Below, piece after piece: positions 3,479 to 26,397 of a stretch of 64,000 bases of DNA. The notes below the pieces were generated by a model. That model saw only the letters and a program-made list of their open reading frames with translations. It was not told the origin of the DNA and searched no databases. The stretch is from Heterodontus francisci (lineage: Eukaryota), in NCBI RefSeq assembly GCF_036365525.1, contig NC_090406.1, positions 4,434,103 through 4,498,102 on the forward strand, read 5' to 3'. Within the stretch, counting starts at the first letter, position 1, and every line of letters starts with the position of its first letter. The translations under genes and the position numbers were made by a program.

Positions 3479-3852
3479 TTTCAGCTGTGGCTCTGTGGGT
3501 AGCACTCTCGCCTTTGGGTCAGAAGGTCATGAGTTCAAATCTCATTCCAGAGACTTGAGCATCAAATTCTAGGCTGACACTCCAAAGCAGTACTAAGAGA
3601 GATGAGATGTTAAACCAATGTCCTGCCTGTTCTCAGGTGGATGTAAAAGATCCCATGGACTATTTCAAAGAGCAGACAGTTATCCATGGTGTCCTAACCA
3701 ATACTTATCCCTGATCAGCACGACAAAGAAAACAGAGATTATCTGGTCATCATCACATGGCTGTTTGTGGGAGCTTGCTATGTGCAAATTGGCTGCCATG
3801 TTTCCTACATTACAACAGTGACTGCACTTCAAAAGTATTTCATTGGCTGTAA
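3479..3852 (+). mobile_element. tRNA-derived SINE split by the CR1 insertion (tail continues at 5109-5165)
   Basis: Body shared with copies at ~130-350, 9890-10190, 27250-27470 and 57310-57612; tail ttggctgtaaag..ctttgggatg is interrupted. Confidence 0.7.
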
Positions 3853-5108
3853 AGTATTAGAATTAGAACATTAGAACATTACAGCGCAGTACAGGCCCTT
3901 CGACCCTCGATGTTGCGCCGACCTGTGAAACCATCTGACCTACACTATTCCATTTTCATCCATATGTCTATCCAATGACCACTTAAATGCCCTTAAAATT
4001 GGCGAGTCTACTACTGTTGCAGGCAGGGCATTCCACACCCCTACTACTCTCTGAGTAAAGAAACTACCTCTGACATCTGTCCTATATCTATCACCCCTCA
4101 ACTTAAAGCTATGTCCCCTCGTGTTTGCCATCACCATCCGAGGAAAAAGACTCTCACTATCCACCCTATCTAACCCTCTGATTATCTTATATGTCTCTAT
4201 TAAGTCACCTCTCCTCCTCCTTCTCTCCAACGAAAACAACCTCAAGTCCCTCAGCCTTTCCTCGTAAGACCTTTCCTCCATACCAGGCAACATCCTAGTA
4301 AATCTCCTCTGCACCCTTTCCATAGCTTCCACATCCTTCCTATAATGCGGTGACCAGAACTGCACGCAATGCTCCAGGTGCGGTCTCACCAGAGTTTTGT
4401 ACAGCTGCAGCATGACCTCGTGGCTCCGAAACTCGATCCCCCTACTAATAAAAGCTAACACACCATATGCCTTCTTAACAGCCCTATTAACCTGGGTAGC
4501 AACCTTCAGGGATTTATGCACCTGGACACCAAGATCTCTCTGTTCATCTGCACTACCAAGAATCTTCCCATTAGCCCAGTACTCTGCATTCCTGTTACTC
4601 CTTCCAAAGTGAATCACCTCGCACTTTTCCGCATTAAACTCCATTTGCCATCTCTCAGCCCAGCTCTGCAGCCTATCTATGTCCCTCTGTACCCTACAAC
4701 ATCCTTCGGCACTATCCACAACTCCACCTACCTTAGTGTCATCTGCAAATTTACTAACCCACCCTTCTACACCCTCTTCCAGGTCATTTATAAAAATGAC
4801 AAACAGCAGTGGCCCCAAAACAGATCCTTGCGGTACACCACTAGTAACTAAACTCCAAGATGAACATTTGCCATCAACCACCACCCTTTGTCTTCTTTCA
4901 GCTAGCCAATTTCTGATCCACAGCTCTAAATCACCTTCAACCCCATACTTCCATATTTTCTGCAACAGCCTACCATGGGGAACCTTATCAAACGCCTTAC
5001 TGAAATCCATATACACCACATCCACTGCTTTACCCTCATCCACCTGTTTGGTCACCTTCTCGAAAAACTCAATAAGGTTTGTGAGGCACGACCTACCCGT
5101 CACAAAAC
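3853..5108 (-). mobile_element. 5'-truncated young CR1 LINE with uninterrupted RT C-terminal ORF (387 aa)
   Basis: YMDFSKAFDKV, GVPQGSVLGP and KFADD motifs; 3' UTR ending in TTCTAAT-type repeats. Confidence 0.95.
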
Positions 5109-5227
5109 CGTACTTTGGGATGTTCTGAAACTGTGAAAGGTGCTAAATAAATGCAAGTCTGTTTCCTTTCATGGACTTCAGGGCAGTCTAATTAACCCTT
5201 TCCTTACAACAGTTATGTTATCCCTAC

Positions 5228-5442
5228 CTTTTTCTGTAGTTGGACAAGTTTTCGAACTCTCAACGTTCATCTGGAACTCTGTTTGGAAACCAGCTGGTGT
5301 GTTCTCCATGGATGTTTTGCACCCTGACCCTTTGTTCTCAGCAGCACCAGGTTTGCTTGACTGGCAGGTGTTTTCTCTAGAGAACTGTGCCACTTTCTGC
5401 TTGTAGTACTTGTACTCGTTGCTTTTTGTGTCAAGCAAAAAC
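5228..5442 (-). CDS. SUGP2: SUGP2 exon 4 (C-half of SURP: FLLDTKSNEYKYYKQKV)
   Basis: ttttaaag| acceptor, G|gtaggg donor, 215 nt phase 2 to 1; overlaps track ORF 5178-5438. Confidence 0.85.
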
Positions 5443-6233
5443 CTTTAAAATGAACATTTTTTTAAAAGTTAGAAGTTAAGTTTCCCCTATCTATTTTCTT
5501 CACTATTCCCTGGGTCAGGCATTAATTACAGCCAAGCGGCAGATAGTTATCAGCCAATGCCACTACCCACGACATAGCTGGCATCATTAACTCAATCCTT
5601 CCCTCCTGAAGTTGCTAATTCTTGCTGTGGTATATCTCCTGAGTACCCACAGGCCTCCAGCACTTTGTCCAAGTGGCTGTTAAAGTATTCATATGCAAGG
5701 CCGAGACAGTGAGTGTCATTAGGTTATTCAACCATGAAAATGAGCTATCAGGCTGGGCTCAAATTGCGATCCCTGTTATTTTCAATACATGAGCTCTATT
5801 TGACGGCATAACAGAGCAAGCAGCCGGGCTCCGAGAGAAACCTGAACTGGCAGACAAGAGAATTTATCATCTTAAGAGGATTATGAAAAGTAGGTATTTT
5901 TTCATTTTAAAAATGGGGGCAACCCTTTGGACCCCATCATCAGTCCCTTTAAGTGATTCTCATGTCATAACTGTGTTGATAAACATGCTCAGAGGGTTGT
6001 GAATCTTTGGAATTCTCTACAGAAAGGTCTGTGGATGTTCATTTAAGCATATTCAAGATTAAGACTGATAGATTTTTGGGTACTAAGGGAATTGATAGAT
6101 ACAGGGATAGAGCAGGAAAGTGGAGTTGATGTTGATTTTCAGCCATGATCCTATTGAATGGCTGAAGCAGGATCAAGGGGCCACATGGGCTTCTCCTGCG
6201 ACTGTTTATGTGATGTCCTATAATTGTGCTTAC

Positions 6234-6519
6234 CTATAATTGGAGTCCTCTTTCTTGTACTGGACGACTGCTTTTTCTGCTGTCTCACCCTTCTCTGCTA
6301 CGAACATAGCCAGTTTATCAATAATGGTCTTGACCTGTGTGTCTTCTGGGGGGCGGATGCTCTCACCGGCTGCTGACGGTGCATCTTTCTCTGTCATGCT
6401 CTTGCCACTGCCATCAGTGGGTGCTGAGACCTTCTCTGTCTTCCATCTACTGCTGCTGTCTGGTGCTGAAGAACCTTTCTCAGTCGGTTTGCTGGCTTTG
6501 GCATCTACCGAAGAAGAAA
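6234..6519 (-). CDS. SUGP2: SUGP2 exon 3 (N-half of first SURP: RPPEDTQVKTIIDKLAMFVAEKG)
   Basis: ttttttaag| acceptor, AG|gtaag donor, 286 nt phase 1 to 2, open frame, SURP motif. Confidence 0.85.
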
Positions 6520-7037
6520 CTTAAAAAAAAACAACAGTTCAATCCATCTCTGCAGAACCAAGGTGAGCTAACAGGAGGCCACACTAGAATCTCAAAACAG
6601 CAAAATCAAGACACTAGAAATTGGAAGGGAAATGTTCAGCTTGCCTCGTGAGTGGATTTAAATTGAAACAGCAACCTCACTCCTCAGGCATTCGGGCTTC
6701 GGCTACCAAGACAGCGGGTGCGAAACCCACTTCCAGACCACTGAAAATGTGTCCATGTAGCTAACTGCTGGGGCACTAGGTACCAGCCAGGCCAGCAATT
6801 GGGCAGAGAAGGGGTAAAACCTCAGTTCATTGCACATCATGGCTTCAATGTGTTGTCTGAACAAAGAGGTTTTAATAAAAGCATATATAATCTTCAACTC
6901 GCTGTCAGATCATGGCACATTCAAAACACCAAGAAACTTTCAATAATAGCTACAACATATTGTAATGACAAATGTAATTCAAGCTGTGCATTTGTTGTAA
7001 AATATTACAAACTATCAGAGATAAATGGAGTACTTAC

Positions 7038-8972
7038 TTTTCGAGGGCTTGATTGCTGTGTCATTCTTTGATTGCTCCTCCTCTTTAGTTATGAACTTAC
7101 TGGAACAAGAAACCTGGCTATGTAATGGGGGAAGGTAGATTTGCTCCACTCGGTTCTTCAGCTCATTTATGTATTTGTTCCCAAACAGCTGATTGCTTTC
7201 CAGATTCATGAAATAATCATACTTTGGAGCCACTGAGATCAGCCCGGTCTTGCGCAACAGGTTCTTCCTTCTTTCTTCGCTAACAAAAGCAAAGATTTGC
7301 CCAATGAACACCATTGATTGGCGGCAAGCTGTGATGGCCTGCTCTAGCTCACTGGCAAGTTCATTAGAGGTCTGTGAGCTTTGCAACTTGGAGCTCAGCT
7401 CATGGTTACTGCTTACTACAAGAAGTGGACCTATGCATTCCAGCAGCTTGCTCTGTACCTCTTGCAAAAGAGTTTCTTCTTGATGCACAATATCATCCAA
7501 CTCCAACCTACTTGTAATGACATTCTTCCTTATCAATAGAGATACAAAAGAGTTGTCTATCACAGGGTACGTGAGGCCTAAATGTGCCACTAATGTTGAC
7601 TCACAGATATCCTGATGCTGCTTTGCCATCAAGCACTGGAAGGCCGTGGCTACCTTGGAATAGGTATCTGTGTTAGGATCAAACTTCTTTTTCATGGAAT
7701 GCTCAACAGCAACACTATGAAAACCAGCCCATTTTATTATTTGCTGTCCCAGTTCCATTTGACTACCTAGAGCAGATATATTCCCCAATGAATATAAACG
7801 AGGAGAATCCGGGGAAACATTTTTGTAGGTGGCCATTGGCTTGCTGGACACAGAAGACCCCACTAAACCAACAGGGGCTGTCCCGAGAAGGCCAGGGGCT
7901 GTCCCGAGAAGGCCAGGGGCTGCTCCGAGAAGGCCAGGGGCTGCTCCGAGAAGGCCAGGGGCTGCTCCGAGAAGGCCAGGGGCTCTCCCTAGAAGGCCAG
8001 GGGCTCTCCCTAGAAGGCCATGTCGCCCCTGAACCTTTGGACGCTTAAGCAAAGGCCCTCTTGCATTTTTAGGAGGCACTTGAGAAGAATGACCTCTTCG
8101 GGAAGCTTCTGTGTTTTTATGAATATAACTGTGCTGGTTCAAGTGAGGGTTATAATCCTCAGCTGCATGGAACCCATCTGTAGGTGTAGCAGTCTGGTAA
8201 ATGGAAGAATCCACCTGAGAGGAGTCCCTGGATGGGTCTCTCCAGGATGTGTGTGAGGGGTCATTCTTACTAGCCGCCAAACGCCGAGCATTATCAATAA
8301 CATTACTTAACAACTTGTATAATGCTGCATCATGTGCCTTAACAGGACTCCTGGGTCTAGGGTTTGATCCTTGATCCCTGGTTTCAGCACCAGGGCTCCA
8401 GGATCGCCTGTGTGATTCTGAGTGTCCTGATTCATCAACAGGGTTTTGGGATCTATTGTATAAACTTTGACCATCTCTGCCATTGGGACTTTGGGATCGC
8501 CTATAGAATTGGTAATCTCTTGAGTCATTAACTGCACTCTGAGACTGCCAATTATTTGGGCTTGTTGGTCTTCTGTACGTTCCTGACCGATCTCTAGACT
8601 CAGCAGGGCTCATTGATCTTCTGTAGATTCCAGATCCTCTCCTGGCATCACTGTCATTGGAATTTGCTTGTCTTCCAAATAACCCTGGATCCCCACCGAG
8701 TTCAACAGGGCCCCTTAATTCTTTATACTGTGAACGGTGATCATCTCTCTCAACGTGATCCAAGAAATTCTCTCTTGCTGAAGCAGAATAGGAAGCATCA
8801 TCATAATACCTTCTATTATCTTCGGAAGGCATTTCTGCTTGACTGGACATATTCCTCCATCTCTCCGATCTGTGAGATGGAGATTCATAGTCATCATAGG
8901 GCAGGTCATCGTATTGTGTATTTTCTTCATATGATTCCCTGGGATATCGCCTGGGTGCATAGTTGAGCATTT
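7038..8972 (-). CDS. SUGP2: SUGP2 large exon 2 (R/S/D-rich N-terminus, GLLGxAP repeats, SUGP2-specific domain)
   Basis: 651-aa ORF 7015-8970; motifs IIKWAGFH, PVIDNSFVSLL, CRQSMVFIGQ and LFGNKYINELK match recalled human SUGP2 (IIKWAGFH, PRVDNEFLNML, CRKSLALLGQ, LFGREYIDHLK); acceptor cctcttccattgaag|, donor A|gtaagt. Confidence 0.9.
7873..8019 (-). repeat. Coding 21-bp tandem repeat x7 encoding GLLG(R/A/T)AP
   Basis: Read directly from the sequence and the ORF translation. Confidence 0.95.
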
Positions 8973-11900
8973 CTTCAATGGAAGAGGGGGGGAAAGAAAG
9001 GAAGAAAAAAAATGTTTAGCTTTTCTTTTATTAAAATTGAAACAATTCTTAAAAAAGTTGCAATCTATATTTCATGTAAAAGCTAATGTATTAGATCACT
9101 TGGGCATGCTGATAACGCCACAAAGATCAGAAAGACATGATGGGTTTTTAACCACAAAATGCACCTGACTAACTTGCTTTTGGGAAATCTGATATAATCC
9201 AAGAGATGCAAGTGAGAAAAACAGGAAGAATTTGTCCTATCAATGGGGACATGTGTCGTCCTCAAGACATTAAACAATGAGTGAGCCTCACATCTTTTGT
9301 CCATTGGGCTTGAGGATGTATGGTGAATGGAGGTGTGAAGCGCCTTGATATGAACCCATTTGCTCAAATAGAGGAAAACAGCTTGGAAAAAGCCAATTTT
9401 AAACAAAGGTATTCTGGATCATACTGAGCGAAGGTACTCTGGGCATTTGTAATCCACTCACCTAGGACCAAATTCAGCAAACCAGAATCTATAGTTAATT
9501 ACTCTCTCCTTTGTGACTCAGACAAGGCAGCATCATATAGGTCCAGATGCGGACGTCCAAGTTCATGTGGCTTCATCTCCAACACGTTAATGTGGCTCAA
9601 GTTATCCTTTGGCTAAAAGCTGGAATGTGTAGCTGACTAAACAGCTACCACCCAAACCAGCCTTTACAAGTAAGCCAAGGACAAGAATTTTTGAATGGTT
9701 CATAAATTTGTGAAATACTCCAAACTTTGTCGTCTTCAAGAATGATTCCATTCTCCTTGGAGTCTCTGCTGACTCCACAAGAAAGGTCAGAAAATGCTTT
9801 CAACAGTAACGTGGAAGTACAAGAAAACTTGCATTATGCAAGACCAGCTCATGTAGCACCTTTCAACACCTCAGCATCTCCCAAAATGCTTTACAGCCAA
9901 ACAAGTACTTTTTGAAGTGTAGTCACAGTTGTAATGTAGGAAACGCAGCACCCAATTTGCGCATAGCAAGCTCCCACGAACAGCAATGTGATAATGATTG
10001 AATAAACTGTTTTCGTGATGTTGGTTGAGTGATACATATTGGCCCAGGACACAGGGTAGAACTCCCCTGCTCTTCTATGAATAGTGTAATGAGATCTTAT
10101 ACATCCACCTGAGAGAACAAACAGGGCCTCGGTTTAACATCACATAAGAAAGATGGCATCTCAGACAGTGCAGCACTCCCTTATACTGTACAATGAAGTC
10201 CTATTGTACAAGCTCATTACAAATGTCAGTATTTGAATCAAGAATGAGGGTTGACATTTACTTGGTAGATTAAAGTCTGTGTGCTAGCAAGCAGTGTACA
10301 ACTTGGAACAAACATGATGAGTTGATCAGGTACAGTATTAAGAGTGCGAGAACTTGTTAAAAACAATCAATAAACTGGAAATTGGAATATTCTGGGATTG
10401 TTCTGCTTCAAAGCAAACCATATACACAACAAACTTTCAAAAGTATTCTTAAAAATAGTTAAAAGCATCTTATACGCACACATAAGAGTGGGTTTCAGCT
10501 CAATGAGTACAACAAAAATAAAATTCCAATCTAAATTTGTTCACGACATAAAAGGGTTCAACAATGATAATGCAATTCAATCCCAAATGCCAGTAACACA
10601 TCTACACAGGTAGTGAAACCATTCTACAAAAATCCAATTTAATAGTGTATTGGTCTATCCAACAAAATGGCGCAGGTTCACTTTGACAATCCGTGATTTC
10701 TGCCAGAAAGACAAGGGAAACTGTAAATGATTAAGAAGTTCTTCAGTGGCAGGGCAACCTGGAGAGCAAACCAGCTACTTTGCTTCATTTTCCCTGCATC
10801 TCGCACATGAGCCAGGTACAAAGAAACCAAATGTAAAATAATCCCACCAGGTTTGCAAGATATCTGGTTGGCGCGGAAGCAAAATCATGAATCTAATTTT
10901 GCACCAACTGTATCACATTTTCAAAATGGCAGCTCAAATGAATGCTGGTGAGTCTGTGTTGATAATCTTCAATGTAGTCCTTCGAAAAAAATATACTGGT
11001 GGTGTGCAGGTAGAATGTTCAGTGAGAGTATGTGGAGAAGTGAATTTATTCTGCTCAGCGATGATTGAGAGATGAGTTGTGTTTTGCATATACTATTTGA
11101 TAAAGACTCCCATTTCTATAGCACCTTTTACAGCCTCAGAATGTCCCAAAGTGTTTTGGAGCCAATGAAGCACTTCTGAAGTGCAGTCATTGTTGTAATG
11201 TGGCAGCCATTTTGCGCACAGCACCAACATGGTACGCATAGACACCCTTCAGAGTTGAAGAAAAGGAGGGTGCTCTGGCTAAAACTACTTCCACTCAGAT
11301 GAAGCGAAATGGACCAATACCAGTATCTGGACTGAAAGTGAAGAGGAATCTTTGTAAATTCAAAATAAGCATCTTAATATTTAAAGGTATCAGTGTCACC
11401 TTGGGTGTGGGGGCATCTCAGTTCTCTGTGGTCCATTGACAGTGGGCTCTATTCCAACCTCCCTCTTCACAAAAAGCTTGTAAGGCTATCAGAGCAGGTT
11501 GTCCCAAGAATGGGTTTGGCCCCCTGATGTCAAGCAGAGAGTCAATGAGGTTCCCCCACCTGCCCCAAACACTTCTTGCTGCTCCACTTTATACATACTC
11601 ACCCAAGGTCAAACAGCACACCAGAAAAAGTGAGCAGCAGTGAGCATTTGTACTTCTCTGTCAAGAAAATACTATTGCATTTCTACTCAAGATTTAGTCA
11701 GAATAAATCATACTATAGATACAGTTCAACATCATGGGGGATTTTTAAACTAAGAATAGGAAGAGAAAGGAAGAATAGCACTCGAGATACAACACTTCAG
11801 ATTTTCCCTAGTTAATAGAGTATGCATTTTAGCAAGAACATTTAGTCCATCTCTTCTTTAGTGATGGGGAATTGCAGGCAGTGGTTAGCCATCAGTATAG

Positions 11901-14900
11901 ATTACAGCACAGGAGGCCATTCAGCCCATCGAATCTGGGTTGCCTCCTTTGAAGAGTAATCCAGTTACTATTGAATCTGTTTCCGCCACATCAGGCGGTG
12001 CATTTCAAATTTTGAACACTCGTTGCGTAAAAAAGTTTTTCCTCATATTGCCTCTGGTTCTTTCACCAATTGCCTTAAAATCTGCGCCCTCTGGTTATCA
12101 TACCTTCAGCAATTGGAAAAATACCCCTTATTTACTCAACTAAATTCTTCATGATGCTAAACATCTCTTAGCCTTCTCTGATATAAGGATCTTGTCCCCA
12201 AACCTCAAATCTCTTCCTGCCTTAGATGTAAAAAAGCAAAAGGAAAGTCTTAGGATAGCTTTCCATTTAAAGTACTCCTGTATTTTGTAGTCAAAAAAAT
12301 GTATAAGAAAAACTAATCTTGCTTTTTAAACAAAAAATGCAATCTTTCCCCTACAGGCAGCCCACCAGATAAGGTAATCTCCTCGCTGGTAGGCTGTTCC
12401 CTGATATCAACATGAAAGTGCCTTGTGTAGTGGGAGGGATGATCAAGTTGGACTAGTTTGAAAGTTGATCTGGAGTTGCTTGACCCTGAAATGGCAACTA
12501 CTCATTAGTCAGTTAGCAGGGCAAGCCAAAGTGAGGGTAAAACCAAGGGAGGCAGTCATCTGTTCAGGTGAAAGTTCGATATTTTTTAAAAAGACAAAAA
12601 AAAATCTTATTGAACTTTTTTTAAAATGTGGAATCAGCAAGTAGACTATTTTTCCCTTTCAGTTACAGCACTGTGCACAGTCACGCAACAGGAAAATTCT
12701 ATGTACCCAGTTGAAAATGAATCATAGGCAAACAATTTCATTAATCTGAGATTTCAGATAAATGACTCTACATCTGAATGCAGAAATTTAGTGGCAAATT
12801 ATTCAGTGATAGCGCGATCTGTTCAGAAGCAAAAATAAGCCTGACAAAACATCTACTACACTTCCCCTTATTACTACATCCACAACAAAAATATCCGTGG
12901 ACCTTAGATGGATTGCATTTTTTGGAATTAAAGTGCCAATTATGGAGCTTCCATTTCTAAATCCAATCAATGTGATAAATACAATTCCACTTCCCTACTT
13001 TTTAATTAATGTTAATTAAAAGCACCGGAGATTACTTCCTACTCTGCTACTGTTCCATCTACAATCTGAAAAAAACAGCCACAGTCGCTGACCCAGTAAG
13101 ACATTCCACGGGGACAAACAAGGTTAGCTGTTGTTTAGTGACACAGTTTTCTTTTTACATTGAGTTACATAGCAAGTACAGCATAGAAAGCTTCCCTTTA
13201 AATTCCCCTTATCCATCTTAACTGCTCCATGTGGTAGTGAATGTAAGTCAGCCTATGATTTCAGTAAAGCATAAAGGTGGGTGTTTGAAATTGTTGTGCT
13301 GTGTCCACTTGAACTGTAAAAGTTGTTCAGCAGCATCATTATTGGTTCTGTCTTTCCACATTTCTGTTGTGCCTGGAGAAGCAATTTACAGCTGTATAAC
13401 ACAGAGGTGAAGAACAGATCAGCAACACCTGCAAGTCTGCCATTTCTATTCGTGTTTAAAAGCCTTACAATTCTTACAGTACATTTAAACATGGGAAATT
13501 TCTGCACATCAGAGGCTGTGCATGGAAGATAGTCACTGGCGATGGGTGTAATTTGAATTAGATTAGAACAAGTAATGCACACTATATAATGGTTCCAAAA
13601 GAAATAAACCTATTGATAATACAGTTTACCAATTTGGAAAACAACTATATGAAACTGGGTACTGTTAACAAAAGTGGATTTGAATATGATAGAAACCATT
13701 TTAGCAAAAGTAACCTTTCACTGCAGTAGTGAACACGCAGTAGCAGAGACCACAGTAGATTTTTCACTTCATTTAATATAATTCAAACCTACCACTTAAC
13801 AAAAATAAGACAGTTGGTGAACAGAGCCAAAGAGAGGAAGGCTCAGACTTGAAGAGGACAAACAGTAACTATCGCGTACATGCGCACAATAGAAGTTCAT
13901 CAAGAAATAATGACAGAAAATGCTCTATATACACAACAGATCTCTCAACATGAAAAAACAAGTGAGCACCCTCAATTTCTGCTTCAGCCAAAAGGTTAAT
14001 TCATCAGATGTTGATAGTTTAGTGTTCCCAGGGTTTCTGCACTTATATTAGATCTCCACCATTTGCTGGAATTCTTTTAATCTGATTAAGAGCTAGGACT
14101 GCCTTCAATCTCAGAAAGCATTTTAGTGAAATGTCTGCCAACCCAGAGATATTCATAGTATTCCAATTGGGGCAGGCAGGAGGGAAGGGGAATTACTCTG
14201 GTTACTTTGGGAAAGTGGGTGGGGGTGTTAAGATGTCACATCCTTTACCTATGTCCCGTGCAGGGCCCAGTTACCCCGCATTACTCCAGGTGGGAGTGTG
14301 AACCCTCTTCTCATACAGGGCCTGGTTTCCTTTGTGGTTGGAGAGAGTATCAGACCTGTGCCCAAAACAGAGCCTTGTTACCTTGGGATGGAGTTATCAA
14401 ATCCTCTCCTTTCAGGGCCTTAGTGCTCCCAGTTACACCAGTTTTTTTGGGGGGCGGGGAAGAGAGCATCACCGCCTTTTCCACAACAGGGACCTGCTGC
14501 CTTGGGATTAGGTTTACCAATCCGCCAGTATTACCCTGGAGTCTCCAGAAATTGAAGATCAAATTCCTGGAGACTGCTGTGAGTAACGCAGGGCAAAAAT
14601 CAGAGTTTTAAAAAATTTTCTTTTTGTTCATTTTCTTTGAATACTTTTGTTCAATGGGGGAGACTGACTGAACAAGGCACGAAAACATGTAATGAAACCT
14701 CCAGGATTACATCCAATCAGCGATAGCAACTCTCCCCAGGATGAAGGGGTGTCAGATCTTCACCCCAAAAAAAGGCCTTGTTGCCCCTAGTCACCCCAGG
14801 GTGGGGATCAGACTTTGTCTCTCCCCCCACCCCAGGTACGGTTGCCCCTGGTTACCGCGTACAGGCCCAGCCTCGGCAACGAACCTATTTCACACAGAGC

Positions 14901-15024
14901 TCCAGGACAGCGGGGTTTTCCCCACCCCCTCCCTGCTTAAACCTCTAGCTATGCCCCCAGGCCCAATTGTAAGCCCCGGTCCCGGTCTCTCCCCCTTCTC
15001 CTTCCCCACCTCAGCCCCACAAAC

Positions 15025-15046
15025 CTGGACAAAACCTCTCCTCCAT
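15025..15046 (-). CDS. SUGP2: SUGP2 coding exon 1 (MEERFCP-, 22 nt, phase 1)
   Basis: gcagcaATGGAGGAGAGGTTTTGTCCAG|gtttgt on the minus strand, just downstream of an ETS-CRE motif; joins in frame (G|AA ATG) to the exon starting at 8972. Confidence 0.7.
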
Positions 15047-15362
15047 TGCTGCCGTCACGTCACTTCCGTCCCCCCACCGGAAGTATCGCGCACCTTCTGA
15101 AAGAACAAAACCGTCCCTCAAGTTCTATATTTAAAAATCGCGACCGCATATCTTTAAATAAATAAATTTAGAACAATAGAATGGTTTCTTGTATTTTCTA
15201 GATTAAACACAATTTTGTAGTTTTTCTCCCTGATCTTGCCTTTGATGTCAATTGTACCAGAAACTACAACTCCCAGAGCGCCTTGCGTGGCCAGAGGCAG
15301 CATCCGGTTGTGTGACGGTTTTATCCGACCAGCCGGAAGTGACGGCATAAGGATATGCAGCC
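15047..15362. promoter_or_regulatory. Bidirectional promoter shared by SUGP2 and SUGP1
   Basis: Divergent ATGs at 15046(-) and 15363(+); ETS-CRE composite CGGAAGTGACG on minus (~15058-15068) and on plus (15334-15344); extra CCGGAAGT at 15077; ZNF143/SBS-type ACTACAACTCCCAG at 15263-15276; locally CpG-enriched. Confidence 0.8.
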
Positions 15363-15384
15363 ATGGCGATGGAGGGAGAAGCAG
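15363..15384 (+). CDS. SUGP1: SUGP1 coding exon 1 (MAMEGEA-, 22 nt, phase 1)
   Basis: Kozak gccATGG; CAG|gttggt donor; in frame with exon 2. Confidence 0.75.
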
Positions 15385-15402
15385 GTTGGTGTTCGGGTCA
15401 AT

Positions 15403-15556
15403 AGAAAGTGCTGGAAATACTCCGCAGTTCTGGCAGTATCTGTGGAGAGAGAAACAGAGTTAATAGAGTGATCGGAGGGTCATAGACCTGAAGCGTTAAC
15501 TTTGTTCCTTTCCCCACAGATGCTGTCAGACCTGCTGAGTATTTCTAACACTTTCT
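15403..15556. repeat. Inverted repeat with ~60-bp arms (dispersed, probably Penelope-type terminal repeat)
   Basis: 15403-15463 is the approximate reverse complement of 15496-15556; one arm recurs at ~56150-56225. Confidence 0.75.
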
Positions 15557-16703
15557 GGTTTTATTTCAGATTTCCAGCATCAGCGATATTTTGCTTTTAT
15601 TTTGGTGTTGGGGTCCATTGGGGGAGAGGAAGGGGTTAACGGGGCTCCAAAGGGGCAGTAGTCTCCAGAATTAGGGGAAAAGCTTTCATTAACCAAATGC
15701 ATTTTCTATCTCATCCCTGAAGAATAGGGAAGAGGGATTTGCCCCAATTGGGGGAGGGGCGTTACTGCCCCACCAAGATAGCTGGGAGTTCAGATTAACC
15801 CCAGTTAAAGTACAGGAGCTTCTTTCATCTTACAACCTGAAGTGCTTACACACCCTCTCTTTACTATGTCCCAAATTACTGATGGGGAGCTAGTTCTTGT
15901 GGGAGCACTTATAACCTGTTTTAATTGTTTAGATCCTGTCATTGGTTAACACAGGTTTTAATTCTTGGTTGCCATGACATCCATTTTGCTCTTGCAGGTT
16001 TGTTCAGACTTCAGGAGTTGTCATTTATCTGACTTTAAAAAAAAAAGTCACCTACTCTGATGTGTAAACACTCTGTGTGCTTTTGTGTTTCTAAATGCAG
16101 CCGCAGTCTATCTGACCTGTGCTCTTTGAAGATTTCACCGTTTCCCTCCTCACCCCATTGTTCACAGATCATCTAGCTGTCAGAAGTGCACGTTTTGTAC
16201 TTTTTAAAAAACAATAATTTTATTATTGTTTACGTGTTGGCCAGGGTTGTACATTCTGCTTATACGGCATTTGCTGCAGTACAGAATGATACATTGATTC
16301 TGTTGATGTAGCATTTTGATGAAAAGTTACATGTCTGAATTGTCAGTGGCCTGTCTTTGCGCTTTACAGCTACTGACTGGTCTGTTGTGTAGCTTCAATC
16401 CTTTCTGATTTTATTTTGGTGTTTACTAGTGCTGTGGCAAGGATAAGGGTGTTTTCTAAGTAGTGACCATGTGGGAGAAGGACAGTATTGATATGGACAG
16501 TTAACTCCTTGTTCCTGAAACTCTGACCTCACTTGGTAAAGCCTCTGAACTTTCATAAAATATTTGTACAGGTGTTTTTATGCTTGAGGGACGGTGAGAG
16601 AGTGACTTTCAAGGGCTTGGTTTTCCCTTTCTTTTAGCAATGTCCTGAGGGCCCCTGTAGTGCAAAATATGTCCCTCCAAGCAACCTATCACTTGTTTGT
16701 AGC

Positions 16704-16943
16704 TTTAGATTAGAGATACAGCACTGAAACAGGCCCTTCGGCCCACCGAGTCTGTGCCGAACATCAACCACCCATTTATACTAATCCTACACTAATCCCA
16801 TACTCCTACCAAACATCCCCACCTGTCCCTATATTTCCCTACCACCTACCTATACTAGTGACAATTTATAATGGCCAATTTACCTATCAACCTGCAAGTC
16901 TTTTGGCTTGTGGGAGGAAACCGGAGCACCCGGAGAAAACCCA
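16704..16943 (-). mobile_element. SINE 3' part (same family as 41228-41570)
   Basis: Near reverse complement of 41340-41540. Confidence 0.8.
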
Positions 16944-17930
16944 CTCTCAGAAACCTTTGAGAAGTTGAGTATGAATTTTGTTCTGTGTGGACTCTCTACC
17001 CTTTATGAGAGAACTGTGTTGCACCCATGATGGTTGACTATGGTGTCTCATTGTCCACGTAAAAGTGTTCCAACATTCAGTCTGGACTGCAAATCTGTTG
17101 GATTGAGTTTAGCCCTTTGAGTGCTGAGCCCACATTCTCCTGAGTGAGAAACTTCACCTCATTCTATTCCTGCTACAGCCTCAGCCAAGCCCCATATCCA
17201 TCCAGAGCCATTCCTCCTCCCAAGTGGAATAACTCCCATTTACTGCAGAGGCGAGCAATACTTCAGCAAGCATCCTCCTCAAGCTTCAACCTATAACCAA
17301 TCTCTTCCTTTCACAGGCCCTGGTTGATCTGATACATAGATACACTCTTGCAGTGACCCTTAATGCTGCTTAAAATATCATTGACTGTTAGTAATAAAAA
17401 CAGAAGTAGGCCATATGACCCATTGAGCCTGCTGCACCATTCAATAAGATTACGGCTGATGATCTACATCAACTCCACTTCTCTGCCCGATCCCCAAATA
17501 TAACAGTCGGGAAATATTTACAAGGAGGGATACCAATAGCGCCCAAAAATCTATCATTCTCTTTCTTAAATATGCTCATAAACTGAAGATCCACTGGCCT
17601 TGGACTTATCATGGTGTGGGAGGGTGCAACGAAGGTTTACTGGATTGATTCCTGGGATGAGAGGGTTATCCCAAGAGGAGAGATTAAGTTGAATGAGCCT
17701 ATATTCTCCAGAGTTGAGAAGAATGAGCAATAATCTAATTAAAACTTTTAAAATGCTTGGAAGCAATGTACCTTTAAACTTCCTTACTGTGGGAATCCAG
17801 TTGTTTCAATGTGTGGTACTTTTACTTTTTTTTTTGCACAGAACAGATTGTCAATCAGGATTAGCTTTCCTTTCTTGTAAATATTTCCTGGATTGTTACA
17901 TTTGTGTGTTTTGATTTTTCTTTCTTGCAG

Positions 17931-18132
17931 GTAAGGCTGGTGGGGCCACCAAGTCCAGCAGTGAGCGATCCTTTAGTCTGGAGCGTCTGGGCTCCTCCAA
18001 TAGACCCAATAAATTGTATGTGAATCTAATGAAACAAGAGGAGCTGATAGCGCAGAAGAAAAAGGAAATCGAGGCCAAAATGGAGAGGGCAAAAAAGGAC
18101 AGTTTCACAAAGCTGCAAGTGACGCCCGCTCA
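17931..18132 (+). CDS. SUGP1: SUGP1 exon 2 (NLMKQEELIAQKKKEIEAKME)
   Basis: tttcttgcag| acceptor, CA|gtacgt donor; matches human QEELIAQKKREIEAKME. Confidence 0.9.
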
Positions 18133-18289
18133 GTACGTATTGATTAATGCTTCTTATTGACAATTATGCATTTCACTTCACTTTTAACTTGTGCTCGTTG
18201 AAATGAGGGATGTTAGTACTACGAATAGAACTCATTTTATTTCAGGCCAAGCTTCTAATTTCTTTGTTAATTAATACCACATCAGCAAC

Positions 18290-18745
18290 AGTGTGGGTTA
18301 GATGCAGACTAAAGCTCCATCTACACTGTCTCATCAAACACTCCCAGGACAGATACAGCATGGGGCTAGATACAGAGTAAAGCTCCCTCTATACTGTCCC
18401 ATCATACACTCCCTGTATAGCTTCAGCACAGGTTAGATACAAAATAATGCTCCCTCTACACTGTCCCATCAAACACTCCCAGGGCAGGTACAGCACAGGT
18501 TAGATCCAGAGTAAAGCTCCCTCTACACTGTCCCCATCAAACACTCCCAGGGCAGGTACAGCACAGGTTAGATACAGAGTAAAGCTCCCTCTACACTGTC
18601 CCCATCAAACACTCCCAGGGCAGGTACAGCACAGGTTAGATCCAGAGTAAAGCTCCCTCTACACTGTCCCCATCAAACACTCCCAGGGCAGGTACAGCAC
18701 AGGTTAGATCCAGAGTAAAGCTCCCTCTACACTGACCCATTAATA
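18290..18745. repeat. 68-bp minisatellite (GGTTAGATACAGAGTAAAGCTCCCTCTACACTGTCCCCATCAAACACTCCCAGGGCAGGTACAGCACA)
   Basis: About 6-7 tandem units. Confidence 0.9.
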
Positions 18746-19204
18746 CTCCTCTCCCAAACTTTGCAATTGACTTGCACTGTACCAAGCTAACTATTTCTGT
18801 TGTTCCACACCAGACATCCTGAAGTCTCTGAGTGTTGAATTAGGTGTGTTATTTGTTATTGTTGTCCTATCTCCACTGGGAACAAGCCTGAGACTGACCA
18901 AACTCATTTCGCAAAGGACCTTTGTCGTCAACACAGGAAGGAAATTTCCAACTCGTTGACTGGGTTGGGTTTGAACTCAAAGGCTGTGTTTAACCCACTG
19001 CACAAGCCAGATACCTTAATGTAATCTCCAGCTGGCCATATGGATGTCATTCTTAACGATTTTCTGATTTTGGATGGACGTTTTATTTGTTGTGTGTGAG
19101 GTATGTTTTTAGAGATGTTTAGTTGAATTCTGAGACTGGTGTTCAGCCTGGCTCTGCTTTTGCTGGTTTGTCTAGAATTCGCTGTCATTCTAATTATTTT
19201 GCAG

Positions 19205-19299
19205 GGATAATGACCAAACCAACACATCTAACAAGTTTGCCAATGATGGGAGTTTCCTGCAGCAGTTCCTGAAGATGCAAAAAGAGAAAGCGACTACAG
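19205..19299 (+). CDS. SUGP1: SUGP1 exon 3 (SNKFANDGSFLQQFLKMQK)
   Basis: ttttgcag| acceptor, G|gtgagg donor; conserved motif. Confidence 0.92.
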
Positions 19300-20707
19300 G
19301 TGAGGAGAGTGTGCGAGGCAAGGCATGATTTGTTACTGTGGAGATGTGAGACATACAGAGCAGACCTCCAAAGGACCAGCAGTTGGGTCACTCCCATCCA
19401 CCTCTGCCCTTGGTCAGGATCACACGGGCTTCCTGTTCCTGACTGCTGTTCGGTGACTCCTGCTGAATGTATGTGCAAGATTGGTCTTCACTGCAGTTTC
19501 TCCCTCACCCCACTTCCATGCACTGACCTAGTCTTTCACACGATGAACGCTAAGTTGAGAAAGGTACTGGGTGGCAGCTGACATCTCGGAAACTGTGCTG
19601 CAGTCTAATTCATTGCCTTCAGGTGAGGAGGGCAGAAAACTGGATGATGTAACAACATAGTAACTGGAGTAGGCCATTCATTCCATCTATACATTCAAAG
19701 TCTTTAATTTCAATTGTGTCAACTTCTTCAATTTAAAATTCCCGTATCCGCAGTTATCGTGAAATCTGCTTATAACATCTTGTCACACTGTAATTACACT
19801 CTCCTGCCAATAACCGTGTATTCCCTTGACTATAGTAGATTAGGGGATGGTCTAATTGAGGTGGTTAAGAATAAAGGCGTTGATGGTTAGATAGAAACTA
19901 TTTCCTTTGGTGGGGGAATCCAGAACAAGGGGGCATAACCTTAAAATTAGAGCCAGGCTGTTCAGGGGTGATGTCAGGAAACACTTCTTCACACAAAGGG
20001 TAGTGGAAATCTGGAACACTGCCACCCTAAAGGCTGTTGAGGCTGGAGGTCAATTGAACATTTTAAAAACTGAGATAGATTTTTATTAGGTAAGGGTACT
20101 AAGGGTAATGGCACAAGGTGGGTAGACGGAGTTGAGATGCAGATAAGCTAGACCTAATTGAATGGTGGAAGAGGCTGAAGGGGCTGAATGGCCTCCTCCT
20201 GTTCCTACATAGCATTGCAGCGCCTCCACTGGCAGAAGGGTGTAATTACAATGTGACGAGTTTACATAACAAAAATAAGGACAGTTTACATTATGATGGG
20301 AATATAAAAGTAAGGACAGAATATATAAAATGGAGACTGAGATACACCTGCAAGCCTGGTCCAAAAATCCCCACCCTTTCACCCTGCTTCATCTGAAGGC
20401 TGTACTTGCTCTTCACTGCCAGTGTAGAACACCACGAAGGATTCATTAAGCATACGTTAATTGTTGTAATATCCTGTACTATTAGGGCACCTTCAGTTAA
20501 CATATTCAACTATTTCAGCGGATGGGTGGGAGTCAGAAATGTTATTCTTGGAATTCAGATACAGTATTAATGCTGATGTTTAACTCGAATGGAGGTGGGA
20601 GTGCAGGGTGATACTTCAGTGTAACTTCCTGACATTTGCTTTTGACTTAAGTAAGTTCATCTTTGATTGTAATGTTTGACCCACTGATCGTGTTTTTTTT
20701 CCTGAAG

Positions 20708-20950
20708 GGGTGCCAACAAGTAACAGCAGTAACTCCACCAGTCCCTCGGGGACCCAGGCACAGAAGAGGCAGATTCTGATCGGGAAGCGACCTGGCTTGG
20801 GAGTGAGCTCTTTAGGCAGCACATTAGGCCAGATGAAGAACTACACCCACGCCAAGCAGATGCCAATCGCAGCCCGCCCCAGCGTCTTCCAGTCGCCAGA
20901 TGACGAAGAGGAGGAGGATGAGGACCTTGAGCAGTGGGCAGAAGTGAAAG
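20708..20950 (+). CDS. SUGP1: SUGP1 exon 4 ([32 protein letters not shown])
   Basis: ttttcctgaag| acceptor, G|gtaact donor; track ORF 20710. Confidence 0.92.
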
Positions 20951-21758
20951 GTAACTTCGATTGCTTGAACTGTGATAATGTGCGTTCGTCTTTAGCAACT
21001 GCTGCTGTACTGAGAGATTTGCTGAGAGGGTATTTGTTTTACCCCATTTCTCTTGAAGGGGCTGTATCACACTGGAATCCAGTCCCTTGGCTCCCTGTGG
21101 CAGAAGAAAAAAGTATCAGCCAGGGGTTTCCACTTGATTGCTGTCCAGCCTCAGTTTCCATAGCTTATGCTTTTTTTCCACACTAGTACCTTGCCATATG
21201 TTGCGTTTTCTATATTACAACAGTAACTAAACTTCAGAAATATTTCATTGGCTGTATAACAGCCACTTGGGAAAGACAGTGGGAGACTGTCGGGCTGCTA
21301 TGGAACCGTAACTCAAGAAAAATGTACTGGGGAGGAAGGGCAGACTTTTGTAGCTGATCAGTAATCGCATAATTTCTCATTAGGTACTAGTGCGGAAACA
21401 GCACCATACGCTGTAGAAAATTGGCCCAAATCCTTTGAGTGAATGCAAAAACTGCAGTCAGTAAATAAAGGAATGGAAAAGACTTGCATTTATGTAGTGT
21501 ATTTCACAACATCCCAAAGTGCTTTACAGCTAATGACTTTTGTTTCACTGCTATAATGTAGGAAACACGGCAGCTAATTTGTGCACAGTGAGCTCCCACA
21601 AACATATATGTGATAACCAGATTATCTATTTTTAGGTGCACAGCCAGAGGTCGTAGTCCACATTGGTACCAACAATATAGGTAGAAAAATGGATGAGGTC
21701 CTGCAGGCTTAGTTTAGGGACTAGGAAAGAGATTTGCAAGCAGGACCTCAAAGGTAGT

Positions 21759-22441
21759 CTTTGGCCTCCTTGTCTCGAGAGACAATGGGTAAGCGCCTGG
21801 AGGTGGTCAGTGGTGTCAGTCGCTGTGAGACAACTATGGAGTGACCTCTCCATGGCGCATGCCTGGGCAAATTTGTGGAGGTTGAGAGTTGCCCAAGCGT
21901 CAAAACCCCCCTCTCGGCCTTTCTGGTGGGGTCCAAAGGAGTGGAGCACGACGTTTGGCACCGGTATGGCTGCAGGAACTGCCGGAAACATGCCAAAGGT
22001 GACACATGACCGCCTACGGGGTTCTGCTCCGGATTTTCTGTTAGGGTTTACTCCCTTAGCCTTGGTCTCTCCCGAGACGCCCACAAGGCAGTGGGGTTGT
22101 TAGGGCCTCTACACAGGTGTAGGGTGAAGCCGGTGGGAGGAGGGGGTGCGAGGGGGTGGGGTGGAGGGGAGGGGGTGCGAGGGGGACTTTATATTCCATC
22201 TGCTATGTTCTTATCCACTCACCAAGCCTGTCCAGATCCCTTTGAAACTCTTTGCATCCTCCTCACAACTTACATTCCTTCCTAGTTTTGAATCATCAGC
22301 AATTTTGGAAATATTACAATTGGTCCCCATTTCCAAATAATGTATATAGATTGTAAATAGCTGTTGCCCCCAGCCCTGATCCTTGTGGTACCCCCCCTAG
22401 TAACAGCCTGCCATCCTGAGAATGACACGTTTATTCCTACA
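21759..22441 (-). mobile_element. Composite insertion (RTE-like 5' piece + inverted CR1 RT fragment) flanked by a 12-bp TSD CTCAAAGGTAGT
   Basis: Direct repeat at 21747-21758 and 22442-22453; the CR1 ORF1 sequence resumes after it. Confidence 0.7.
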
Positions 22442-25205
22442 CTCAAAGGTAGTAATCTCCGGATTACTCCCAAGGCCACATGCTAGTGAATATAGAAATA
22501 GGAGAATACACCAGATGAATGTGTGGCTGGAGGGATAGTGCAGGAGGGAGAGCTTCATATTTCTGGGGCATTGAGACTGGTTCTGGGGAAGGTGGGAGCC
22601 GTACAAGCCGGGCGGTCTGCACCTGAACAGGACTGGGACAAATATCCTTACACGAAGATTTGCTAGTGCTGTTGGGGATGGTTTAAACTAGATTGGCAGG
22701 GGATGGGAACCTGAGCACAGTTTCAGATAGGACAAATTCAGAGTAGGGAACGGAAGACAGAAAATTAGCGAGTGACTCTGAAAGACAGAAGAAGCAAAGG
22801 TTAAAAAGTGTGCAGCACAGGAATTTGGCTGTGTTAAAAGGTATTTATTTAAATGCAAGGAGTATAGCAAATAAAGCCAATGAGCTGAGGGCACAGACAC
22901 ATGGCAGCATGATATCATTGCTATAATGGAAACTTGGCTTCAAGAGGGGCAAAAATGGCAGCTCAACATCCTTGGATATAGAGTTTTTAGGCAGGATAGT
23001 GAGGGGGATGAAAAAGGAGGGGGTGTAGCATTATTGGTTAAAGAATCAATTACAGCTGTGAGGAGGGATGCTATGCGAAATGAATCATCAAATGAGGCCA
23101 TATGGGTTGAGCTCAGAAATATAAAAGGGGCAGCCACACTACTAGGAGTGTACTGTAGACCCCCAAATAGTGAAAGGGAGATAGAAGAACAAATAAGTAG
23201 GTACATTTCTGAGTGCAAAAACAATAGGGCAATAATAGTTTGGGATTTCAACTACCCTAATATCACCTGGGATACAAACAGTGTGGAGGGCACAAAATTC
23301 TTGAACTGCATTCAAGAGAACTTTTTTAGCAGCACGTAACAAGCCCAACGAGAGAGGGCGCAATTCTAAATTTAGTCTTAGGAAATGAAGCTGGGCAAGT
23401 GGATGAAGTAGCAGTGGGTGACCATTTTGGAGATAGTGACCATAGTACAGTTAGATTTAGCATTATTATGGAAAAGGACAAATAGAACAGGAGTGAAAGT
23501 TTTAAATTGGGGGAAGCAAATTTTACGAAGCTGAGAGGTGATCTGGCGAAAGTGGACTGGATACAGCTATTTGAAGGAAAATCTGTGGCAAACCAGTGGG
23601 AGGCATTCAAAAGCGAGATTCTACGGGCACAGCGTAGACGTGTCCCCACAAAGAAAAAGGGTGCTACTGCCAAAACTAGAGCCCTCTGGTTACCAAGAGG
23701 CATACAGGGTAAGATAAAGCAGAAAAAGAAAGCATATGACAGTCACAAAAAACTTAATACTTTAAAAAACCTCGAGGACTATAGAAAGTGCAGGGGCAAA
23801 GTAAAAAAAGGAAATTAGGAAAGCAAAGAGAGGGCATGAAAAAATATTGACAGGTAAAATCAAGGAAAACCCAAAGATGTTTTATCAGTACATTAAGAAC
23901 AAGAGGCTAACTAAGGAAAGGGTAGGGTCTATCAGAGATGTACAAGGTAACTTAGGCGTGTATGCAGAAGATGTGGCCAGGGTTCTTAATGAGTACTTTG
24001 TCTCTGTCTTCACAAAGGAGAGGGATGATTCAGACATTGTAGTTAAAGAGGAGCAGTGTGAAATATTAGATACGATTAGCATAATGAAAGAGGAAGTACT
24101 AGGGGGTCTGACATCTTTGAAAGTGGATAAATCACCAGGGCCGAATGGATTTTATCCCAGGCGTTAAAGGAAACCAGGGAGGAAATAGCAGATGCTCTGA
24201 TGATCTTCAAATCCTCACCAGTACAGGCGAGGTACCAGAGTATTGGAGATCTGCGAAAGGGTGCGAGGGATAGGCCAAATAATTATAAGCCAGTCAGTCT
24301 GACCTCGGTGGTGGGCAAACTATTCGACTCAATTCTGAGAGATAGGATAAACTGTCACTTAGAAAGGCAAGGATTAATCTGGGATAGTCAGCAAGAATTT
24401 CTTGAGGGAAGGTCTTGACTTACGAATTTAGTTGAAATTTTTGAGCAAGTAACAAGGAGGATTGATGAGGGTAGTGCAGTGGATGTTGTCTACATGGATT
24501 TTAGTAAGGAATTTGACAAGGTCCCCCAAGGTCAGAAAAGTAAAAGGCCATGGGATACAGGGGAATGTGGAGAGTTGGGTCCAAAATTGGTTCAGTGACT
24601 GGAAAGAAAGGGTAGCGGTCGGCTGATGCTTCTGCAAATGGAAGGCAGTTTCCAGTGGCGTTCCACAGGGCTCAGTGTTGGGTCCCTTGCTGTTTATGGT
24701 ATAAATTAATGATTTGGACTTAAATATGGGAGGCATGATTGGGAAATTTGCAGAGGACGCAAAAATTGGTCCTGTAGTTGATAATGAAGAGGATAGCTGT
24801 AGACTCCAGAATGATATCAGTGGTTTGGTTGAGTGGGTGGAAAAGTGGCAAATGGAATTCAATCCGGAGAAATGTGAGGTAATGTATTCGGGGAGGGCAA
24901 ATAAAGCGAGGGAATACACAATAGAAAGGAGGATATTGAGAGGGTTAGAGGAAGCGAGAAACCTTGGAGTGCATGTCCACAGGTCCCTGAAGATGGCAGG
25001 ACAGGTAGATAAAGTGGTGAAGAAGGCATATGGAATGCTTTGCTTTATTAGCCGAGGTATTTTGTATAGAATACAACAGCAGGGACGTAATGCTGGAACT
25101 GTATAAAACGCTGGTTAGGCCACAGCTGGAGTATTGCGTTCAGTTCTGGTCACTACATTACAGGAAGGGCATTATTATTGCTCTGGAGAGAGTACAAAGG
25201 AGACT

Positions 25206-26397
25206 TTTTTAAATTATTCGTTCATGGGATATGGGTGTCGCTGACATGGCCAGCATTTATTGCGCATCCCTAATTGCCCTTGAGAAGGTGGTGGTGAGCT
25301 GCCGCCTTGAACTGCTGCAGTCGATGTGGTGCAGGTACACCCACAGTGCTGTTCGGCAGGGAGTTTCAGGATTTTGACCCAGCGACAGTGAAGGTACAGT
25401 GATATAGTTCCAAGTCAGGATGATGTGTGGCTTGGAGGGGAACTTGCATGTGGTGGTGTTTCCATACAGCTGCTGCCCTTGTTCTTCTAGTTGGTAGAGG
25501 TCGCAAGTTTGGAAGGTGCTGTCAAAGGAGCCTTGATGCATTGCTGCAATGCATCTTGTAGGTAGTACACACTGCTGCCACTGTGCATCGGTGGTGAAGG
25601 GAGTGAATGTTTGTGGATGGGGTGCCAATCAAGTGGGATACTTTGTCCTGGATGTTGTCGAGCTTCTTGAATGTTGTTGGAGCTGCACCCATCCAGGCAA
25701 GTGGAGAGTATTCCATCACACTCCTGACTTGTGCCTTGTAGATGGTGGACAGGCTTTGGGGAGTCAGGAGGTGAGTTATTTGCCACAGGATTCCTAGCCT
25801 CTGACCTGTTCTTGTAGCCACGATATTTATATGGCTACTCCAGTTCAGTTTCTGGTCAAAGGTAACCCCCAGGATGTTGATAGTGATCAGTAATGATTCA
25901 GTGATCGTAATGCCATTGAATGTCAAGGGGAGATGGTTAGATTCTCTCCTGTTGGAGATGGTCATTGCCTGGCACTTGTGTGGCGCGAATGTTACTTGCC
26001 ACTTATTAGCCCAAGCCTGGATATTGTCCAGGTCTTGCTGCATTTCTACACGGACTGCTTCAGTATCTGAGGAGTCGCGAATGGTGCTGAACATTGTGCA
26101 ATTATCAGTGAACATCCCCACTTCTGACCTTATGATTGAAGGAAGGTCATTGATGAAGCAGCTGAAGATGGTTGGTCCTAGGACACTAGACTGAAGAACT
26201 CCTGCAGTGATGTCCTGGAGCTGAGATGATTCACCTCCAACAACCACAACCATCTTCCTTTGCACTAGGTATGACTCCAACCAGCCGAGAGTTTTCCCCC
26301 TGATTCCCATTGACTCCAGTTTTGCTAGGTCTCCTTGATGCCATACTTGGTTAAATTCTGACTTGATGTCAAGGGCAGTCACTCTCACCTCACCTCA
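25206..26397 (-). mobile_element. Truncated LINE (CR1/L2 superfamily, second family) nested in the CR1
   Basis: 288-aa RT ORF 25522-26388; the same 3' end recurs at 30112-30450, 39690-39770 and 47900-47970. Confidence 0.88.

Follow-up and report, generated by a model that had tools for sequence, protein, structure and literature searches.

Two paralogous genes, SUGP1 and SUGP2, point in opposite directions from an interval of a few hundred nucleotides in the shark Heterodontus francisci. Is this the layout in which SUGP2 was born, and how did SUGP2 come to differ from its paralog? These questions were addressed on a window of 64,000 nt (contig NC_090406.1, positions 4,434,103 to 4,498,102), and all coordinates below are those of this window.

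Gene models at the locus

The first-pass annotation had proposed that SUGP1 and SUGP2 lie here with divergent ATGs 316 nt apart. Joined-exon homology to shark proteins confirmed both gene identities, and the ATGs were placed head-to-head at 15046 on the minus strand (SUGP2) and at 15363 on the plus strand (SUGP1), with exactly that gap. The first five coding exons of SUGP2 were found (1873..15046, minus strand; exons 15046-15025, 8972-7038, 6519-6234, 5442-5228 and 1996-1873), the gene continuing past the left end of the window. Once joined, they are identical to the N-terminus of the H. francisci SUGP2-like record (P0140) at 860 of 860 positions; the large minus-strand exon by itself is identical to the SUGP2-like record of this species at 644 of 644. 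For SUGP1, 13 coding exons, which include two SURP modules and a G-patch (15363..47314, plus strand; a last short exon was left unplaced), gave an open frame of 645 aa, identical to Heptranchias SUGP1 at 602 of the 645.

Both first exons have 22 coding nt, end in phase 1 and read CAG before a GTTKGT donor, as had been noticed beforehand. Exon 1 of SUGP2 (15025..15046, minus strand) encodes MEERFCP plus 1 nt and has the donor GTTTGT, and that of SUGP1 (15363..15384, plus strand) encodes MAMEGEA plus 1 nt and has the donor GTTGGT. A second in-frame SUGP1 ATG at 15369 would give 16 nt of coding sequence. Of 13 SUGP2 proteins of chondrichthyan type, 9 have the start ME[ED]RFC.E, H. francisci included; two of the other four open on residues that correspond to the end of intron 1. 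Seven codons precede the junction Gly in eight of ten SUGP1 records; one of the others starts at the second ATG, and one is a low-quality model. Judging from these counts, both 22-nt first exons are real and are conserved across sharks and rays.

Exon 2 of SUGP2 (7038..8972, minus strand) is 1,935 nt long, runs from phase 1 to phase 1 and occupies the place of SUGP1 exons 2-4. Beyond it, SUGP2 exons 3-5 and SUGP1 exons 5-7 have common phases (1/2/1/2), with a split inside each SURP module, and the two genes have in common a 124-nt exon and a GTAGGG donor at the equivalent intron. Splice signals therefore persist between SUGP1 and SUGP2. The genes that flank the interval are paralogs of common exon structure, as expected of the relic of an inverted duplication.

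One candidate SUGP2 exon (about 12483-12366), faintly like the bony-vertebrate first exon described below, was rejected: the record of this species splices exon 1 directly to 8972, and the candidate was also left unscored by a profile of bony-vertebrate N-termini. Some other features of the two genes were recorded. SUGP1 intron 11 is a GC-AG intron (donor GCAAGT, 43650-43656, plus strand). The acceptor regions ahead of both SURP-opening exons of SUGP1 are identical at 62 of 65 nt, intron part included (28323-28387 and 35753-35817, plus strand), and the matching SUGP2 acceptors do not carry this 65-nt module. SUGP2 intron 4 contains a reverse transcriptase fragment, presumably of LINE type, with a 400-codon open frame (3943-5142, minus strand; 4346-5125). 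One protein, P0019, is a SUGP2 model fused C-terminally to an Arf-family domain, perhaps a neighbour merged by gene prediction.

A predicted bidirectional promoter of housekeeping type

The region between the ATGs (15047..15362, 316 nt) comprises both 5' UTRs and the shared promoter. It is continuous, CpG-rich and repeat-free; its CpG observed/expected ratio is 1.1, compared to 0.29 over positions 1-50000, at a GC content of only 44.6%. [quoted passage not shown] The earlier claim that the same motif precedes each ATG is thus correct. A second ETS core, CCGGAAGT, lies in the opposite orientation at 15077..15084 (plus strand) and is without a counterpart on the SUGP1 side. The ZNF143-type motif said to lie between the ATGs was also recovered, as one predicted site, single and off-centre, in which RRACTACAN is joined to an 18-bp Staf/ZNF143 binding site (SBS; 15261..15287, plus strand). 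With CCCR at SBS positions 3-6 and C at position 12, it matches the consensus as given in PMC3082894.

According to PMC3464117, the ETS-CRE motif has 226 copies in the human genome and is enriched at mRNA-processing genes; 157 of the copies are in promoters, out of a set of 17,143-26,431, or about 1%. Because only 157 human promoters carry the 11-mer, a second copy would not be expected from background alone. GABP is reported at over 80% of divergent promoters (PMC2077898), and divergent pairs driven by ZNF143 and GABP are described in PMC3082894 and PMC2077898. The interval combines divergent ATGs less than 1 kb apart, CpG enrichment and ZNF143/GABP motifs, and the TSSs would lie in between. 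Judging from its motifs, we take it to be an ordinary housekeeping-type bidirectional promoter, presumably active both ways, joining paralogous 5' ends. Gene names of the SUGP1/SUGP2 locus were absent from the searchable supplements of PMC3082894, PMC3464117, PMC2077898 and PMC7817982.

The SUGP1-side 11-mer is kept in P0151: the over-extended N-terminus of this protein has PEVTA, and the window frame shows it at an equal spacing. For the SUGP2 side, the catshark protein opens with MTAA and the window frame has VTAA in that place, a hint that the last base of that 11-mer is not fixed. Seven nt ahead of the SUGP1 start there is an ATG in another frame (15356-15358, plus strand); it is likely not conserved, since the equivalent P0151 codon differs.

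How alike are the two gene ends?

The promoter had been called mirror-symmetric, which overstates the case: its halves align no better than shuffled sequence. In local alignments under three scoring schemes, 58, 220 and 127 of 1000 dinucleotide shuffles matched or beat the score of the two halves, and 151, 505 and 571 of 1000 did so with the 11-mer masked. For the stretch from the 11-mer to the donor, the figure was 1160 of 2000. Arms that pair the two gene ends reach 11-15 nt at most, and palindrome tests on the promoter were negative, the arms being not alike beyond chance. Three coinciding features remain, beyond which the shuffle tests gave no significant likeness of promoter halves and first exons: an 11-mer near each ATG, a coding part of 22 nt that ends in phase 1, and a T at donor position +3, which is found at 2 of 18 mapped donors, those of the first introns of SUGP1 and SUGP2. 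These matching features were picked after the fact. Since SUGP1 and SUGP2 still have other splice signals in common, common descent of the two first exons is plausible, and we incline towards it. Any head-to-head layout gives paralogous 5' ends a mirrored look, and the mirroring therefore does not date the arrangement.

Alternatively, the layout could be real and old and the look-alike first exons convergent, products of generic motifs, Kozak context, the CAG|GT consensus and a chance match in length. The shuffle tests of halves and first exons are consistent with this, as are the dissimilar peptides MEERFCP and MAMEGEA, and the start at the second SUGP1 ATG (16 nt) in 1 of 10 records. The frequency of GABP at divergent promoters (PMC2077898) and the enrichment of the 11-mer in mRNA-processing genes (PMC3464117) would also favour such motifs here anyway. 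What convergence has to explain, however, is the coincidence of three uncommon features, namely an 11-mer carried by about 1% of human promoters, a +3 T at 2 of 18 donors, and equality of both length and phase; we consider it rather unlikely.

Gene order in other vertebrates

In human, the first-pass annotation had placed SUGP2 head-to-head with ARMC6 and SUGP1 head-to-head with MAU2, a few hundred kb apart. Both pairs are found in rows of the supplement of Li et al. 2006 (PMC1487180), where SFRS14 (SUGP2) and ARMC6 are 103 bp apart and head-to-head, in chicken as well, and SF4 (SUGP1) and KIAA0892 (MAU2) are 234 bp apart, 79 bp in mouse. In the same supplement, the human SUGP genes are both on the minus strand, and their separation of about 287 kb agrees with that distance; gene 53345 follows SUGP1 on the same strand. 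A mouse gene list (PMC10733574) gives the order between the two SUGP genes, and PMC12270618 is consistent with the distance between them.

The shark window contains a TM6SF-family gene downstream of SUGP1 and on the same strand, as had been predicted (53419..57126, plus strand; exons at about 53419-53510, 55877-55983 and 57029-57126). Its third exon matched a solved TM6SF1 chain (E 1.8e-8), the second only at E 0.27, and no Pfam or Atlas match was obtained for these short exons. The stretch at 53419-53510 we take to be the first exon of this gene, and human gene 53345 is presumably TM6SF2. By position, the shark gene is a candidate TM6SF2. Large GC-skewed minisatellites lie around and inside it (50100-53270, 53647-54638 and 57614-64000), with units of 20-75, 43 and 26 nt; the 26-mer array exceeds 6.4 kb and reaches the end of the window.

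Evidence from other vertebrates was scattered. In the PMC1487180 supplement, the rows for chicken and for Fugu do not score SUGP1 and MAU2 as consecutive. The identifiers of the chicken genes place SUGP2, ARMC6, SUGP1 and MAU2 in close steps with another gene of the interval far off, which weakly hints at further rearrangement. Medaka mau2 is divergent to LOC101167609. SUGP1 and SUGP2 are on the same chromosome in all six other species listed, which by itself does not establish adjacency. A literature search yielded no published outgroup gene order for the two genes, the accessible parts of 10.1101/502674 and PMC6625096 being uninformative; a synteny figure in the lamprey lectican preprint 10.1101/2020.09.24.311837 may bear on it.

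Could the junction be an assembly artefact, or a recent rearrangement of this species? Both gene ends, both conserved flanks, the uninterrupted CpG-rich and repeat-free 316 nt and the complete ZNF143 site speak against it, as does the location on one chromosome in those six species, and we regard this explanation as highly improbable.

A different first exon in bony vertebrates

It had been proposed that a single inversion, with both breakpoints in bidirectional promoters, interconverts the shark and human arrangements. Such a clean inversion is incomplete as an explanation: the first coding exon of SUGP2 differs between cartilaginous and bony vertebrates, and the junction must therefore have swapped an exon too, not only broken a promoter. 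The SUGP2 proteins that we read as bony-vertebrate (our own assignment; P0011 matches named mammalian SUGP2) open with a 40-codon segment that is absent from the shark window. This segment is a phase-1 exon: among 25 short matches, 22 run on as Gln-Gly and 3 splice to Asp. A profile built on 18 bony-type SUGP2 N-termini found nothing in the window (best E 2.6) and nothing in shark SUGP2 or SUGP1 at E ≤ 1. In the supplement of PMC1487180, the human SUGP2 coding start lies 2.5 kb from the TSS. This distance and the absence of the 40-codon exon from the shark argue that an exon replacement took place at the SUGP2 junction. Matches to the bony first-exon segment carry the precomputed family PF27652, which is unnamed in the Pfam copy used. 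The segment presumably resembles the ARMC6 N-terminus; searches with it retrieved no ARMC6, and 25 of 29 candidates were pieces of SUGP2.

The age of the layout can now be considered. An ancestral inverted duplication, as first suggested, stands as the most parsimonious reading, the genes being paralogs with a common exon structure. The shark layout takes one inverted duplication, and the human layout, with both genes on the same strand 287 kb apart, takes more steps. On this parsimony, and because the bony start would be derived if the ARMC6 likeness is right, we favour the shark layout as probably the older one, with modest confidence.

The opposite polarity was weighed as well. SUGP2 would then have arisen beside ARMC6, with an ARMC6-like start, and an inversion in the cartilaginous stem would have moved it to the side of SUGP1, there to acquire a fold-back copy of SUGP1 exon 1 and the ETS-CRE element. 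Such an origin accounts equally well for the matching 22-nt exons and the +3-T donors, and it agrees with the head-to-head SUGP2-ARMC6 pair of both human and chicken (PMC1487180) and with the bony-type first exon on many deep branches of the SUGP2 tree. However, it requires a dispersed duplication and two separate exon replacements. Moreover, the MEDRFCP start is already present in P0002, the deepest chondrichthyan-type branch, and the event would therefore have to be very old too. A derived shark layout seems to us unlikely.

The large exon of SUGP2 and mobile elements

SUGP2 exon 2 contains a helical domain of about 200 residues (7129..7767, approximate limits, minus strand) with homology to ORF1-like proteins of a presumed tyrosine-recombinase (DIRS-type) retroelement. 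SUGP2 has the domain in sharks and in bony vertebrates alike, SUGP1 lacks it, and it sits in one large exon that the parent gene does not have (1,935 nt; all ten SUGP1 scored below zero). When the large exon was searched against 1.84 billion representatives, the matches were SUGP2s, low-complexity hits to the GLLG repeat, a number of proteins with RRMs, and six unnamed ORFs that align with the query at residues about 400-615. Alignment of a profile of SUGP2 cores with a profile of five of these ORFs by HHalign gave 98.4% (E 4.6e-15, 174 columns). The ORF profile scored 25 of 26 SUGP2 at 21-63 bits, the single miss being a 252-residue fragment, with reversed SUGP2 at no more than 1.3 bits and ten of ten SUGP1 at no more than -1.0. 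Reciprocally, a profile of 25 bony-type cores scored all six ORFs at 46-65 bits and reversed sequences at no more than 0.4. The six short ORFs are divergent, with 46-82% identity to one another.

These unnamed proteins are putative products of mobile elements. Their layout and tails presumably resemble those of DIRS elements, and the tail of P0060 presumably resembles the start of a reverse transcriptase. In P0057, the exon-2-type domain (235-394) is followed by a phage-integrase match at 800-909 (E 0.004; 17.3 bits, below the Pfam cut-off of 27.1, and seen in this one protein), where R, HxxR, W and Y occur in order as in a tyrosine-recombinase-like region; PHROGs, NCBIfam and PDB gave no tyrosine-recombinase support for this protein. 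No Pfam family, that of LAP2alpha included, matched the core or five of the six ORFs at E ≤ 5, and the sixth had only the integrase match. The model of the exon-2 domain (pLDDT 66) had no fold match at E ≤ 0.001 or Z ≥ 8, and fold searches against PDB and viral libraries gave nothing above background. The element profile had 0 matches among PDB sequences, and of the pattern matches in metagenome and viral sequence (595, 197 and 102), 0 were confirmed as SUGP1 or as the element ORF.

In a tree of the cores (42 of 48 rows, six RRM-type proteins without the anchor motif having been dropped), shark and bony SUGP2 were sisters (support 99/98), which points to one capture before their split; the tree is midpoint-rooted and does not fix the direction of transfer between host and element. 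From these comparisons, we consider with fair confidence that the domain is of element origin, probably a domesticated DIRS-type retrotransposon ORF1. Its capture is probably older than those of LAP2alpha and ZNF451. An exon-2-type domain also ends the proteins P0040, P0041, P0043, P0045, P0048, P0050 and P0051 (82-110 bits), four of which have RRM matches. The RRM-bearing ones are, we presume, ZNF638/matrin-like, and the seven proteins probably represent further independent captures. Just ahead of the element-like domain, a 21-nt coding tandem repeat of GLLGAAP type is present in 7 copies (7872-8020, minus strand); it is found in sharks and absent from P0002. Chicken SUGP2 is listed in PMC7499964 among genes flagged by retroviral-type HMMs, the domain being unspecified in the accessible part of that source; the flag may concern the G-patch or be a partial anticipation of the element origin.

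The reverse direction, in which mobile elements picked up an old host domain, or in which the element-like proteins are degenerate host genes, is favoured by the RRM-bearing host proteins that outscore the element-like ORFs (82-110 compared to 46-65 bits) and by an integrase match below cut-off in P0057. Against it, the single large exon that the parent gene does not have, the divergence of the six short ORFs (46-82% identity) and independent capture by unrelated genes together repeat the pattern of LAP2alpha/ZNF451 (PMC4495291). We hold it to be improbable.

A possible function and history of the locus

An account that joins function and history can be put forward, to which we give an even chance. 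The 316 nt would form a single bidirectional promoter of housekeeping type, and both 5' UTRs would be very short. Transcription would be started both ways by ZNF143, bound to its one SBS, and by GABP/CREB-type factors on the pair of ETS-CRE sites, and the two genes would be co-regulated. Before the split of cartilaginous and bony vertebrates, an inverted duplicate of SUGP1 would have arisen, with exon 1 and the ETS-CRE element retained. In this copy, one large phase-1 exon with the ORF1 of a tyrosine-recombinase retrotransposon would have replaced exons 2-4, giving SUGP2. Sharks would retain the resulting head-to-head layout, which is probably the one in which SUGP2 was born. In the bony-vertebrate stem, a rearrangement would have put SUGP1 beside MAU2 and ARMC6 beside SUGP2, and SUGP2 would have exchanged its old first exon for that of 40 codons, which was probably copied in inverted orientation from the ARMC6 start.

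More tentatively, SUGP2 might be a three-part chimera in all jawed vertebrates, made of a SUGP1 duplicate, a DIRS-type ORF1 and a partner-derived first exon. Its ORF1 might then have been fixed more than 400 million years ago, in a third human DIRS-derived gene far older than LAP2alpha and ZNF451, and its first exon might be an inverted copy of the start of its partner, SUGP1 in sharks and ARMC6 in bony vertebrates. If this is true, bidirectional promoters would be places at which a gene can regain its 5' end from a neighbour.

A literature search, outside which most subscription journals fall, turned up no paper that describes SUGP1 and SUGP2 as a head-to-head pair or proposes that SUGP2 derives from a DIRS element. 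In its accessible part, the 2018 Repbase review (PMC5753468) lists two human genes with DIRS-derived domains, LAP2alpha and ZNF451, and no others; SUGP2 would make a third, conserved from sharks to humans. The promoter itself is of ordinary ZNF143/GABP type, and the interest lies in the history that it exposes. A testable birth route is offered for a vertebrate splicing-factor paralog, and an origin is proposed for the long uncharacterised stretch by which SUGP2 differs from the well-studied SUGP1. If confirmed, first-exon exchange with a divergent partner would be a concrete way in which proteins are remodelled when bidirectional promoters change partners.

Comparison with known systems

The shark interval resembles ZNF143/GABP-type bidirectional promoters as described in PMC3082894, PMC2077898 and PMC3464117, being shorter than 1 kb and CpG-enriched, with RRACTACAN plus SBS, ETS and ETS-CRE motifs, and serving housekeeping RNA-processing genes. 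It differs from them in that its genes are paralogs with matching first-exon geometry, its GC content is low (44.6%) and its sites are predicted. As in human 19p13.11 (supplement of PMC1487180), each SUGP gene lies on a short divergent promoter and a TM6SF gene comes after SUGP1; the human SUGP1 ATG, only 13 nt from the TSS, would be a further likeness to shark SUGP1, whose 5' UTR is predicted to be very short. In contrast to the shark, the partners are exchanged in human, and the human SUGP2 coding start is in another exon, of 40 codons.

For the exon-2 domain, the closest parallel is provided by the LAP2alpha (TMPO) and ZNF451 isoforms derived from a DIRS1-like ORF1 (PMC4495291), which likewise show one large exon with an ORF1-like domain, fusion to host domains and, as is probable for the SUGP2 domain, repeated capture. 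Unlike LAP2alpha, the SUGP2 domain has no LAP2alpha Pfam or PDB match, and would therefore belong to another ORF1 family; the identity of the element is also less well established than for LAP2alpha/ZNF451. In SUGP2, the domain is encoded by an internal exon rather than an alternative 3' exon, and it is found in sharks and bony vertebrates, not only in mammals.
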